Shown piece by piece: positions 1,291-6,124 of a stretch of DNA of 64,000 nt. This DNA comes from an uncultured Azospirillum sp. (GTDB taxonomy: Bacteria; Pseudomonadota; Alphaproteobacteria; RF32; CAG-239), in NCBI GenBank assembly GCA_900538765.1, contig UQAB01000001.1, forward strand, positions 75,679 through 139,678, written 5' to 3'. Position numbers and translations under genes: made by a program. The notes under the pieces are model-generated. The model was given only the letters and a program-made list of their open reading frames with translations. It was not told where the DNA came from and ran no database searches. Numbering within the stretch: position 1 is the first letter of the stretch; each line of letters opens with the position of its first letter.

Positions 1291-2605
1291 AAGCCTGATT
1301 TTTCCGCGCCTGCTTTTCCGCCCGGAGCCTGTCAAAATACTCAATCCGCTTTTTGACTTCCCGCTCAAAACCGCGGTCAACCGGATAATACAACTTCATG
1401 CGCTTCATCCCGTCCGGAAAATAATTCGCTCCGGAAAAACCGTCTTCGCAATCCGGATCATATTCATATCCCTCGTTATATCCCAACTGTTTCATCAGCT
1501 TTGTCGGCGCATTCAGAATATTCTTCGGCGGCATAAGAGAACCTGTCCGCCGCGCAGCATCACGAGCTGCGTGCATCGCTTTATATACACCGGCGGACTT
1601 CGGCGCTGTCGCCAGATACGCCGCCAGTTGAAACACTGCCAAATCTCCCTCCGGAGAACCCAGACGTTCATAGGTGTCCCAGCAGGAAATCGCCTGATTA
1701 ACCGCATTCGGATCAGCCATGGAAACGTCTTCCACCGCAAAACGCGTCAACCGCCGCAACAAATACTTCGGGTCTTCTCCGCCCTCAATCATCCGTGCAA
1801 CCCAGTATAACGCCGCATCAACGTCAGACCCGCGCAAAGATTTGTGCACCGCGGAAATCAGATTATAATGGCCGTCCCGCCCCTTATCATAAACCGGCGC
1901 CCGTGAACGGATAATTTTAACAATCGATTCCTTGTCAAAAACTTCGCCCGGCTGCGCATAATTCCAGATACTTTCCGCCAGATTCAAAATATAGCGCCCA
2001 TCACCGTCGGCAATAGTTTTCAAAAATTCCCGCGCTTCATCATCCACCGGCAGTTTTCTGCCTGTTTCTTTCTCTGCCCGTTGCAGCAAAACCTCAAATT
2101 CCGGCTCATTCAGACGGTTCAAAACAAAAACCTGACACCGGGAAAGCAAAGCCGCATTCAGCTCAAAAGACGGATTCTCCGTCGTCGCCCCAACCAGAAT
2201 AATTGTCCCATCCTCAACATAGGGCAAAAAACCATCCTGCTGGGATTTGTTAAAACGATGAATTTCATCAACAAACAGCAAAGTCCCCTTGCCCTGAGTC
2301 GCCCGGCGGTCCTGCGCATACTGAAACACCCGCTTCAAATCCGCCACGCCGGAAAAAACCGCCGAAATTTGTTCAAAATACAGATTCGTATGCTCGGCAA
2401 TCAAACGGGCAATTGTCGTCTTGCCGCAACCCGGAGGCCCCCACAAAATAAAGGACGAAATCTTTTTTGCTTTCAGCATCCGCCCCAAAGGCGCATTCTC
2501 GCCGATAATATTATCCTGCCCGACAACTTCGTCCAAAGACCGCGGACGAAGCCTGTCTGCCAATGGCTTTTTCACATTGCTTGAAAATAAAGTTTCTTCC
2601 ATCAT
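1289..2605 (-). CDS. rarA: replication-associated recombination protein A (RarA/MgsA AAA+ ATPase)
   Basis: Walker A GPPGCGKTT, LFVDEIHRFNK and the RarA C-terminal helical domain are present. ATG at 2605-2603. Confidence 0.9.
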   Translation of the reverse strand: MMEETLFSSNVKKPLADRLRPRSLDEVVGQDNIIGENAPLGRMLKAKKISSFILWGPPGCGKTTIARLIAEHTNLYFEQISAVFSGVADLKRVFQYAQDRRATQGKGTLLFVDEIHRFNKSQQDGFLPYVEDGTIILVGATTENPSFELNAALLSRCQVFVLNRLNEPEFEVLLQRAEKETGRKLPVDDEAREFLKTIADGDGRYILNLAESIWNYAQPGEVFDKESIVKIIRSRAPVYDKGRDGHYNLISAVHKSLRGSDVDAALYWVARMIEGGEDPKYLLRRLTRFAVEDVSMADPNAVNQAISCWDTYERLGSPEGDLAVFQLAAYLATAPKSAGVYKAMHAARDAARRTGSLMPPKNILNAPTKLMKQLGYNEGYEYDPDCEDGFSGANYFPDGMKRMKLYYPVDRGFEREVKKRIEYFDRLRAEKQARKNQA

Positions 2606-4987: not shown

Positions 4988-6124
4988 CTAACGTTCTATG
5001 CCTCCACGGGAATGAACCAAGGTCAAATCAATTTCCTTGCTTTTGTTTTCTTCTTGGCGGCTGCTGTTTTCAAGTTCTTTCTGGCGTTCTTTTCTGGCTT
5101 CTAAAACAGCCTGCTTGTTTTTTTCAATAATCTCGCGGACTTTTTCGTTATGCTCTTTTTCCCGGGCTTCCTTGTCGGAACGCACATTTTCAATAATCTG
5201 TTCGTCTTTGATTTTGGGCTTGGCCGGTTCTTTTCTGAAAACCTGCCGCCCGGCCTTGACGATTTTATCAATGCTGATGCCGGCATCCTTTGTCGTATCC
5301 CAAACACCGATCTCTTTGTCATTGAGAAAAAATTCCTGCCAGTCTATTGTCCAATCCTGTTTTTTGCCGTCTTTTTTACGCGGCGCCAAAAGCTTGGCCA
5401 GCTCTTCCCGGCTGGGAACCCGTCCCATAGCCTGCATAATTTGCTGCGGCGTAATAATACATTCGCTTAAATTCAGGCCGATAATGTTAACCCCGGTAAA
5501 ATCAACGCCGGTAAAATCCACCCCGCGTAAATTCAAACCGTGCAAATCAATTTTCTTTAAATCGAGAAGCGTCAAATTCATCTTTGCCAGATTAAGCTTG
5601 TGCGGAAAATATTTTGCAAGATATTCAATTAAAGCCTGCAAATCTTCAAGCCCCATTTCATCAATTCTGATATCCAGCAGAATAGCTCCCTCAATATCAG
5701 CCTCTGCCAGCTTAACACCGTTAAGGCAGGCACCGGTAAAATTGACATCTTTCAGAATTGCACCGGACAAATTCGCTCCGGTCAGGTCAGCGCCGCTCAA
5801 GTCGGCACCGGTTAAATCGGCCCCTGAAAAATCTGTATTTTTCAAAGAAGCCCGACTGAAATTTGCCCCGATTAAAGAAGCGCCGTTAAAAACGCCGTCA
5901 TCATTGTTCTTTCCCGAAAAATCAACCGCCTCCAAGACTTTTGAGGCAAAAACCTCCTGAGGTTTGTCCAAAATTACTTCTTCCGATGTTTTTTCCGCCA
6001 TAGGTTCACGAACGGCAGGGCGTTCCTCATGCCGATACCCCCGGGACACGGCGTGCCACCGGTAAACCTTTTCGTTCTCGGCTCGCTCCGTTTGCTTATC
6101 TGATTTATTGTTACCTTCTGACAT
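4988..6124 (-). CDS. pentapeptide-repeat protein with Lys/Glu-rich N- and C-terminal regions
   Basis: Tandem A(D/N)LxG pentapeptides (ADLTGADLSGADLTGANLSGAILKDVNFTGACLNGVKL...) with KE-rich charged flanks. Confidence 0.8.
   Translation of the reverse strand: MSEGNNKSDKQTERAENEKVYRWHAVSRGYRHEERPAVREPMAEKTSEEVILDKPQEVFASKVLEAVDFSGKNNDDGVFNGASLIGANFSRASLKNTDFSGADLTGADLSGADLTGANLSGAILKDVNFTGACLNGVKLAEADIEGAILLDIRIDEMGLEDLQALIEYLAKYFPHKLNLAKMNLTLLDLKKIDLHGLNLRGVDFTGVDFTGVNIIGLNLSECIITPQQIMQAMGRVPSREELAKLLAPRKKDGKKQDWTIDWQEFFLNDKEIGVWDTTKDAGISIDKIVKAGRQVFRKEPAKPKIKDEQIIENVRSDKEAREKEHNEKVREIIEKNKQAVLEARKERQKELENSSRQEENKSKEIDLTLVHSRGGIER

Follow-up and report, generated by a model that had tools for sequence, protein, structure and literature searches.

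A VirD4-like membrane ATPase encoded with a pentapeptide-repeat protein, and often with a TolC-like SPOR lipoprotein, in uncultured gut Alphaproteobacteria

In conjugation and type IV secretion machines, the type IV coupling proteins (T4CPs) are regarded as the receptors for substrates. Those of the VirD4/Cagbeta/TrwB kind have two N-terminal transmembrane (TM) helices, a RecA-like domain with a Walker A motif, an inserted all-alpha domain and an acidic tail, and the all-alpha domain recognises substrates or regulators in TrwB, Xanthomonas VirD4 and Cagbeta-CagZ. The same features are combined in a 771-aa ATPase encoded in a 64-kb stretch of DNA (the window) from an uncultured Azospirillum sp. 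(contig UQAB01000001.1). Unlike the known T4CPs, this ATPase has a Walker B motif ending in DD, an insertion of ∼50 residues in the all-alpha domain and a WW..F motif in the tail, and in the loci sampled its gene is not located beside virB genes. Instead, it follows the gene of a pentapeptide-repeat protein (PRP) in what is probably a three-gene operon on the minus strand, in which a lipoprotein gene comes first (Table 1). The operon is vertically inherited and belongs to the core chromosome of a clade of uncultured gut Alphaproteobacteria that has the rank of an order.

Dedicated, co-encoded cytoplasmic partners of T4CPs are known from Cagbeta-CagZ (PDB 8dol) and TraD-TraM. In these pairs a small partner encoded nearby attaches to the T4CP at its all-alpha domain or at its acidic C-terminal tail, and the tail of F TraD ends in an aromatic motif, as does the acidic tail of the present ATPase. 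In contrast to CagZ and TraM, the PRP is an unrelated 378-aa protein of the pentapeptide beta-helix type, which we infer to bind the ATPase. An alphaproteobacterial T4CP that contacts a pentapeptide-containing protein is known from R. typhi, in which cREM-4, a candidate rvh effector of ∼950 aa, co-precipitates with RvhD4 (PMC11077975). One small internal pentapeptide repeat is the sole observable feature of cREM-4 (PMC11077975). This protein is much larger than the PRP, its host possesses a full rvh type IV secretion system (T4SS), and homology between the two is not established.

The other two protein types have well-described counterparts as well. The lipoprotein is comparable to TolC, OprM and CusC (OEP, NodT-type lipoproteins) in its lipidated N-terminal Cys and its two repeats of long antiparallel helices, but its model lacks beta-barrel strands, it carries an additional C-terminal SPOR domain, and the protein of the window has no OEP match. 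Moreover, neither a membrane-fusion protein nor an ABC or RND pump is encoded next to it in the gut clade (HlyD-like and M50 genes occur in one distant relative, L088). The PRP shares right-handed beta-helix repeats, an acidic surface and repeat-level sequence matches with the DNA mimics Qnr, MfpA and AlbG and with the repeat region of DotG/IcmE. It differs from the former in its two repeat blocks, split by a conserved helix, in a family-specific tail of 150 residues and in scores far under the family cut-offs, and from DotG in its predicted cytoplasmic location.

Conservation of the three-gene locus

A word-indexed search returned ∼100 clusters of full-length homologues (28-96% identity), all of them from metagenomes or metagenome-assembled genomes (MAGs), and an exhaustive profile search yielded 247 ATPase representatives with E < 1e-30. 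Among the genomes scanned, one per GTDB species, a relative was present in 102 species. The synteny counts given below rest on 80 kept loci, and ∼20 kb of sequence around the locus was seen for each relative. All 80 loci derive from uncultured Alphaproteobacteria, mostly of gut origin, and their labels include 'Proteobacteria bacterium CAG:495', Candidatus Scatocola and MAGs of human, ruminant, rabbit, chicken and Hadza gut; one of them (L005) is 99% identical to the window. No published description of a module composed of the PRP, the ATPase and the lipoprotein was found in literature searches.

The gene order in the 80 loci, as determined by tblastn, is near-invariant: a GFO/IDH/MocA gene on the opposite strand, followed by the genes for a lipoprotein of ∼600 aa, the PRP, the ATPase and RarA. 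The PRP gene is located immediately 5' of the ATPase gene in 77 of the 80 species loci (median gap 5 nt), and the two genes overlap or are separated by 25 nt or less in 67 of these 77. The three exceptions consist of two truncated contigs and one local inversion. This adjacency is far beyond chance, and in most loci the PRP and the ATPase are translationally coupled. A lipoprotein gene adjoins the pair in 73 of the 80 loci, with a median gap of 69 nt. No terminator-like site was found in the three junctions among the lipoprotein, PRP, ATPase and rarA genes, and the regional promoter and terminator scan was not above chance. A previous reading of the window, made from the sequence alone, had placed the PRP gene directly downstream of the coupling-protein gene on the same strand and had treated the two as a pair. 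Both open reading frames (ORFs) exist at the positions and lengths it had given, and adjacency, common strand and pairing hold; since both genes are on the minus strand, however, the PRP gene is upstream (5') of the ATPase gene, and the third member on the same strand, the lipoprotein gene, had been overlooked.

Table 1. Positions of the operon members, their sub-features and the adjoining genes in the window
Feature	Position	Strand	Basis
First gene: 606-aa lipoprotein; TolC-like helical region ∼63-475, SPOR ∼533-606	6193..8013	-	lipobox, Pfam of homologues, AF2 (AlphaFold2), Foldseek
SPOR (peptidoglycan-binding) domain of the lipoprotein	6196..6417	-	model fold, motif, homologue Pfam
Second gene: 378-aa PRP, no signal peptide or TM segment	4988..6124	-	Pfam, hydropathy, synteny
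PRP repeat block 1, residues ∼59-150, ∼18 pentapeptides, net charge ∼-9	5675..5950	-	alignment, Pfam, PDB matches
PRP family-specific helical linker between the repeat blocks, DEMGLEDLQALIEYLAKYFPHKL	5594..5662	-	alignment of 23 orthologues
PRP repeat block 2, residues ∼178-224	5453..5593	-	alignment
PRP C-terminal family-specific region, ∼150 residues, with ITPxQI.QA.GRVP and APKKK	4991..5452	-	conserved motifs in alignment
Third gene: 771-aa T4CP-like membrane ATPase	2602..4917	-	Pfam, profile search of PDB, AF2 + Foldseek
N-terminal membrane anchor: TM1 (13-43), ∼43-residue loop, TM2 (87-114)	4576..4881	-	hydropathy, AF2 helices, conservation
Walker A GATELGKT, residues 166-173	4399..4422	-	conservation in 34 sequences
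Clade-specific insertion in the all-alpha domain, QA.ANDY.L ... LLSYY ... Y.PVGSW, ∼50-60 residues, window residues ∼289-350	3868..4053	-	joint alignment
Walker B LLFVMDD, residues 504-510	3388..3408	-	D509, D510 each at least 90% conserved (34 sequences)
Disordered acidic C-terminal tail, residues 680-771	2605..2880	-	charge count
DWWMEEDAF motif in the tail, residues 747-755	2653-2679	-	W748, W749, F755 at least 90% conserved (34 sequences)
rarA/mgsA (AAA+ recombination factor)	1289..2605	-	MgsA_C 198 bits
GFO/IDH/MocA oxidoreductase, divergent, neighbour of the lipoprotein gene	8135..9154	+	synteny

Every ORF of 150 aa or more in the window was compared with Pfam, and those left unassigned were also compared with NCBIfam. 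The gene content is of the housekeeping type (RarA, TruA, RecX, Hsp33, CarD, acetate kinase/Pta, LeuRS, LptE/F/G, PNPase, IF2, NusA and others). Among these ORFs, no match to a VirB component, relaxase or integrase family was obtained, so that the absence of such genes from the window, as claimed in the sequence-only reading, was borne out. The scans of the window for tRNA genes and Rfam families were empty.

Across loci, the flanking housekeeping proteins are 72-92% identical and conserved in order, while the three module proteins are 28-67% identical. In closely related pairs, the ratio of nonsynonymous to synonymous substitution rates (dN/dS) is 0.03-0.13 for the module (0.05-0.13 for the PRP) and 0.016-0.075 for RarA. 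The module is thus under purifying selection and evolves 2-4 times faster than its neighbours. A solitary T4CP gene, without relaxase or mating-pair genes in its vicinity, could be viewed as what is left of a degraded element of the conjugative or integrative kind that has lost its other genes, and the sequence-only reading had itself named this outcome as one that would overturn it. Such a remnant would not be expected to show order-wide synteny in ∼80 species within housekeeping genes, dN/dS values of 0.03-0.13 and intact motifs. In addition, no integrase, tRNA or repeat boundaries were found at the locus, and its GC content (0.45-0.47) equals that of the remainder of the window. The synteny, the purifying selection and the intact motifs together indicate that the module is functional and does not represent a decayed element, and the remnant explanation is accordingly given hardly any credence.

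The three encoded proteins

The ATPase was recognised by three Pfam families, namely T4SS-DNA_transf (PF02534; 61.2 bits versus a cut-off of 20.1), TrwB_AAD_bind (31.1 versus 20.5) and TraG-D_C (22.3 versus 22), but scored far below the cut-offs of the NCBIfam equivalogs for VirD4 and IncP TraG (at best 43 bits versus 250-728). A search of PDB sequences with the single ATPase sequence gave no match, while the profile matched Cagbeta (E 2e-5). The AF2 model (mean predicted local distance difference test score, pLDDT, 82.6) has the TrwB/Cagbeta fold, i.e., a RecA-like nucleotide-binding domain with an inserted all-alpha domain. Its best Foldseek match was Helicobacter Cagbeta (8dol; E 5e-14, target-based TM-score [TMt] 0.63), followed by TrwB (1e9s, 1gl6 and 1gki; E ∼2e-8, TMt 0.56-0.66) and then by DndH, TdpA, HerA and DotL. 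The identity to solved structures is ∼12-14%, and to the best plasmid-encoded T4CPs 21-24%. By both sequence and fold, the protein is a true T4CP homologue that descends from VirD4-type coupling proteins. The sequence-only reading, which had described a T4CP with a TM N-terminus and an acidic C-terminal tail, was therefore correct in this respect.

Among 34 ATPase sequences of 25-68% identity, 40 columns are invariant. The loop between the two TM segments has an invariant W78, with P68, Y75 and P95 each kept in at least 90% of the sequences. In the Walker A motif, G171 and K172 do not vary, and the conservation of T173 is at least 90%. Most members have hhhhDD as Walker B, versus DE in Cagbeta and the outgroups. 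This DD pair was considered as a marker of linkage to the PRP and rejected, as one PRP-linked relative (L091) has DE, while L090, at which no PRP gene is identifiable, has DD. The last 92 residues contain 29 D+E versus 6 K+R (net -23). Within this tail, the consensus DWW(M/L)xE.AF is followed by NPF in most members; the ATPase of the window lacks the NPF. The WW..F motif occurs in six of seven PRP-linked ATPases, versus none of the three compared ATPases that lack an identifiable upstream PRP gene.

The lower-ranking structural matches of the ATPase raise the question of a defence system against phages or plasmids, based on a membrane ATPase of the HerA/DndH kind. DndH, TdpA and SIR2-HerA are indeed among the weaker Foldseek matches, and a module that evolves 2-4 times faster than its neighbours would be in keeping with such a role. 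However, PADLOC gave no match for any of the three module proteins, the module occupies a fixed position in the core genome in place of a variable defence island, and T4CPs are the best structural matches. A defence function is thus considered very improbable.

The PRP was matched by the Pfam family Pentapeptide (PF00805) in three stretches with 107.5 bits, versus a cut-off of 20.2. No hydrophobic segment was detected, and the protein is predicted to be cytoplasmic. Its architecture is constant across 23 aligned orthologues and consists of an N-terminus, a first repeat block, a helix, a shorter second repeat block and a family-specific tail. The N-terminus is variable and carries an SW.AVS motif. 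The linker between the blocks contains 11 invariant positions from L162 to N178, and the strongly conserved helix reads LQALIEYLAKYYPHKLNL in the alignment of the 23 orthologues. The tail, for which no Pfam family was found, is marked by the motifs ITPxQIAQALGRVP, FGVWD and GKKVFR, a basic APKKKK patch, a KE-rich helix and a terminal Arg/Gly motif (…R.RGR; SRGGIER in the window) that follows this helix. Of the KE-rich flanks reported in the sequence-only reading, the C-terminal one holds 20 K+R and 19 D+E in the last 79 residues.

A database search with residues 150-310 of the PRP retrieved members of the same family and no others. The PDB matches are limited to the repeats, and all are pentapeptide proteins; similarly, NCBIfam matches of the PipB/PipB2 type, down to E 1e-13, are at the level of the repeats. 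Against the NCBIfam models of Qnr and MfpA, the PRP scored 24-38 bits versus cut-offs of 240-500, and its 378 aa with extra domains differ from the ∼180-220 aa expected of these families. The same two-block architecture is present in the PRPs of L088 and L091, and the linker helix is also kept in L088.

The lipobox Cys32 of the lipoprotein is invariant in 25 orthologues and at least 90% conserved in a second set. Among 23 homologues, Pfam recognised SPOR in 13 (best E 2e-6) and, weakly, OEP in six (best E 0.003); one homologue (P0127) has a precomputed PF05036 (SPOR) match, and weak or faint OEP (PF02321) matches are on record for L088 and L096. The protein of the window itself has no significant Pfam match (none to OEP, and SPOR below threshold). 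Its AF2 model (pLDDT 83) contains two repeats of very long helical hairpins (H139-196/H201-235 and H342-396/H402-440), and the best 39 Foldseek matches in the PDB are all of the TolC family (TolC, OprM, CusC, OprN, VceC, CmeC and MtrE). A lipoprotein profile run against PDB sequences gave chance coiled-coil matches and nothing else. In the model, DSSP finds no strand of three or more residues before residue 534, and the segments at the barrel positions appear short or helical. The C-terminal part of the model follows the SPOR order beta-alpha-beta-beta-alpha-beta (E534-540, H543-562, E566-572, E575-583, H590-598), and the motif MQLGAY...C593...C603 is conserved in orthologues. Between this domain and the C-terminus of the L088 OEP protein, identity is 33% (E 2e-10), and an N-terminal motif is also common to the two proteins. 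On the basis of the model and of the remote similarity to TolC, the lipoprotein reads as an outer-membrane-anchored, barrel-less helical protein of the TolC kind, which would be tied to the peptidoglycan via its SPOR domain.

SPOR domains target septal peptidoglycan, T4CPs and FtsK belong to one superfamily, and the pentapeptide proteins MfpA and Qnr mimic DNA. The operon could thus be imagined to act in septal DNA handling, as a membrane pump of the FtsK/HerA superfamily combined with the SPOR lipoprotein and a DNA-mimicking PRP, together with RarA in chromosome or fork processing. In line with this, HerA, TdpA and DndH are among the Foldseek matches of the ATPase, a MipZ/ParA gene is a neighbour in L088 and L096, and in the window the stop of the ATPase gene overlaps the start of rarA by 4 nt. 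Nevertheless, no Pfam or NCBIfam match to an FtsK_SpoIIIE motor or to the FtsK gamma domain was obtained for the ATPase, the first structural neighbours of which are T4CPs. Furthermore, the linkage to rarA is a feature of the gut clade (RarA 83-91% identical across loci; ATPase-rarA gap -56 to 2764 nt), is broken by inserted genes in six loci, and is not seen in L088, L091, L096 and L097. On the same grounds, rarA was rejected as a core member of the module, to which it probably does not belong. A septal role is accordingly judged improbable. On the other flank, the GFO/IDH/MocA gene adjoins the lipoprotein gene in the gut clade and the OEP+SPOR gene in L088 and L096.

Distant relatives, the virB genes and neighbouring sequence

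The pairing of PRP and ATPase extends to five further alphaproteobacterial lineages (L088, L096, L091, L094 and L097), in which the pair again lies among housekeeping genes but the neighbouring genes differ (Table 2). This two-gene core of PRP and ATPase, found in other Alphaproteobacteria, is older than the three-gene operon. In several lineages the ATPase has also become fixed to a TolC-like SPOR lipoprotein.

Table 2. Genetic context of the ATPase in distant relatives
Locus (ATPase)	ATPase length	Context
L088 (P0168)	1022 aa	GFO (opposite strand), OEP+SPOR, two HlyD-like, Peptidase_M50, PRP, ATPase, MipZ
L096 (P0183)	1005 aa	GFO, OEP-like, PRP, ATPase, MipZ
L091 (P0170)	1013 aa	PRP then ATPase, beside FTHFS
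L094 (P0175)	1001 aa	PRP then ATPase, beside FTHFS
L097 (P0176)	720 aa	PRP then ATPase, between obg/rsfS and rpmF/plsX
L092 (P0174)	748 aa	unrelated 387-aa gene in PRP position
L085 (P0102)	730 aa	Rickettsiales MAG; ATPase alone beside nusA/infB
L090 (P0172)	729 aa	short contig; ATPase then prepilin peptidase; cut 144-aa ORF upstream
L099 (P0195)	776 aa	outgroup; last gene of virB8-virB9-virB10-virB11-virD4 cluster, 4.2-Mb chromosome

The nearest relative of known context (L099) is a chromosomal alphaproteobacterial VirD4, encoded in a virB8-virB9-virB10-virB11-virD4 cluster of rvh-like arrangement. No VirB gene was found within 8-10 kb in ∼95 sampled module loci, and the Pfam-annotated contexts of nine distinct neighbourhoods contained no VirB, relaxase or integrase gene; among the distant loci that were read, VirB genes were present at the outgroup L099 and nowhere else. 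In the all-alpha domain, an insertion with the motif QA.ANDYFL ... LLSYY ... NY.PIGSW is present in all 12 aligned clade members, nine of which are known to be unlinked to VirB genes (the contexts of P0186 and P0202 were not looked up), and is absent from P0195, the protein of the virB8-11/virD4 cluster, and from seven other outgroup T4CPs. This ATPase lineage has left the virB cluster, has remodelled its recognition domain and has become genetically fixed to the PRP.

Two of the distant loci contain further genes. In L088 (positions 4706-8882; GCA_002410125.1, DHQH01000110.1), two HlyD-like genes (223 and 446 aa) and a gene for a 715-aa Peptidase_M50 protein separate the OEP+SPOR gene from the PRP gene. 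On visual inspection, the N-terminus of the 446-aa protein is GAF-like and the C-terminus of the M50 protein HlyD-like, and the arrangement resembles a tripartite envelope system. These genes were ruled out as general members of the module, as they occur in L088 alone and tblastn searches of the window and of the other loci gave no homologue; they may therefore be a lineage-specific insertion. In L092, the slot of the PRP gene is occupied by a gene for an unrelated 387-aa protein (8841-10004), which overlaps the start of the ATPase gene, and two small genes (212 and 144 aa; 12265-13334) are located 3' of the ATPase gene. The partner slot may thus be exchangeable.

Within the gut clade, a same-strand gene for a protein of 423-451 aa is located between the ATPase gene and rarA in six loci from four lineages (L015:12307-13578; L016; L029:5292-6575; L032:12419-13756; L084; and L036, with tandem copies at 8282-9637 and 9634-10932). 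The encoded proteins carry a conserved FYHExxHxLQ motif, reminiscent of HExxH metalloproteases, and are 22-56% identical across species (84-97% within the pairs L015/L016 and L032/L084). They belong to no Pfam family, and the window encodes no homologue of them. The position of this gene could be a variable slot for cargo or effectors.

These observations bear on the possibility, raised in the sequence-only reading with its candidate effector pair, that the ATPase serves as coupling protein for a T4SS of the VirB/rvh type whose genes lie elsewhere in the genome; the PRP would be a dedicated effector, or an effector adaptor or chaperone, delivered into another cell. The genuine T4CP fold and the VirD4 of a virB8-11/D4 cluster as the nearest outgroup of known context agree with this proposal, as do the conserved Arg/Gly-rich terminal tail and the basic patches of the PRP. 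Pentapeptide effectors of the PipB/PipB2 type exist, with repeat-level matches to the PRP down to E 1e-13, and the variable HExxH gene lies directly 3' of the ATPase gene in six gut loci, as is often the case for effector genes. The co-precipitation of cREM-4 with RvhD4 in R. typhi provides the sole precedent (PMC11077975). Nevertheless, no VirB gene was found in the window or in any sampled neighbourhood of the module, and the substrate-recognition domain of the clade is remodelled relative to its VirB-linked relatives. The PRP is near-universal and syntenic, with a dN/dS of 0.05-0.13, in contrast to the patchy distribution typical of effectors. Finally, the hosts are gut-lumen MAGs and relatives from other metagenomes, one of which is labelled beach sand, and there is no evidence of an intracellular lifestyle. 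Delivery through a T4SS encoded elsewhere is a possible explanation, which we regard as rather unlikely.

Several other regions of the window are noted for completeness. An ORF of 611 aa between rimP and lptF/G (57817-59652, minus strand) has no Pfam or NCBIfam match and a GC content of 30%, versus 40-51% elsewhere in the window; it possibly encodes a recently acquired or fast-evolving surface protein. ORFs of 359, 453, 634, 353 and 264 aa within 27000-29444 (+), 33693-35597 (+), 16188-17249 (+) and 41440-42234 (-) likewise lack a Pfam or NCBIfam match, and unannotated proteins are numerous in the host clade. In a 946-aa protein (48166-51006, plus strand), a C-terminal trypsin-like peptidase domain (residues 747-881) is the sole recognisable part, and no family is assigned to the N-terminal 740 residues. 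A perfect sigma-70 consensus (TTGACA, 16 nt, TATAAT; 1254-1281, minus strand) is located just 3' of rarA and ahead of a 123-aa ORF without family (849-1220, minus strand), and L004 has a 130-aa ORF at the equivalent position. Of the 32 2-kb bins, 31 have a negative GC skew and one (34001-36000) has +0.003, and the cumulative skew reaches -5.6; with no switch in skew, the entire window lies on one replichore.

A possible membrane machine and its significance

Since the operon is inherited vertically among housekeeping genes and is not located beside T4SS genes, it probably encodes a dedicated membrane machine and not the debris of a mobile element. The link between the ATPase and the PRP is real and deeply conserved, and the two proteins therefore very probably work together. 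In view of its presence in 77 of the 80 loci, its usual translational coupling and the purifying selection, the PRP fits better as an obligate partner of the ATPase (adaptor, regulator or single dedicated cargo) than as a typical variable effector.

The following scheme is proposed tentatively, with a confidence that falls somewhat short of even. The ATPase would form a membrane-anchored hexamer in the inner membrane. The PRP, which would be an acidic, rod-shaped beta-helix of DNA-like dimensions and the obligate partner of the ATPase, may have its docking site in the remodelled all-alpha domain, in the acidic WW..F tail or in the two together, and could act there as a regulator, as an adaptor or as the single dedicated cargo itself. 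In the gut clade, the conserved inter-TM loop of the ATPase, presumably periplasmic, would communicate with the lipoprotein, the predicted outer-membrane-anchored and peptidoglycan-bound helical component of the TolC kind. The outcome would be an envelope-spanning device with no need for a VirB channel.

A number of observations weigh against this scheme. A VirB or rvh channel could be encoded elsewhere in these genomes, of which ∼20 kb per locus was seen; in Rickettsiales genomes, the rvh genes are scattered. The lipoprotein gene is missing from the locus in the gut species L029, L074 and L083 as well as in L091, L094 and L097, and the lipoprotein is therefore not obligatory. The similarity of the lipoprotein to TolC is remote (Foldseek probability ∼1, E ∼1e-3, TM-score 0.26-0.44). 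Canonical T4CPs have a catalytic Glu at the second acidic position of Walker B, whereas most members of the present family have Asp. In L096 (10001-13018) the Walker A motif is degenerate, with Leu in place of the Gly before the Lys (SLKT), and no precomputed Pfam match exists for this protein. The copy of one gut lineage (L087:6571-8421, GCA_031550205.1) is truncated to 616 aa, lacks the TM region and has a degenerate Walker B (DG). In light of the Walker B Asp, the degenerate motif of L096 and the truncated copy, the ATPase activity may be weak or regulatory.

In its broadest form, the proposal is that the PRP-ATPase pair, with the lipoprotein where present, represents an envelope system that has not been described before and does not depend on any T4SS. 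A coupling protein of VirB/VirD4 origin would have been exapted as a stand-alone motor, which would export or position the DNA-mimicking beta-helix protein or other cargo (e.g., the HExxH proteins) or be gated by that protein, and which would form part of the core biology of the whole gut order. This extended proposal is doubtful, although it is considered a real possibility.

Among coupling proteins, the present lineage is unusual in being fixed in the core chromosome of ∼100 species, under purifying selection, and in being paired with a PRP and often with a lipoprotein. If the genomes contain no VirB channel, a T4CP would here be found for the first time to work without a T4SS. PRPs, most of which have no role known to us, would then gain a defined partner at the molecular level. 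Should a VirB channel be present, the PRP would be a universally conserved and genetically tethered substrate or adaptor of a T4SS in abundant, unstudied gut bacteria, which would also be new. Either way, the module provides a clean marker of, and an experimental entry point to, the uncultured organisms that carry it.

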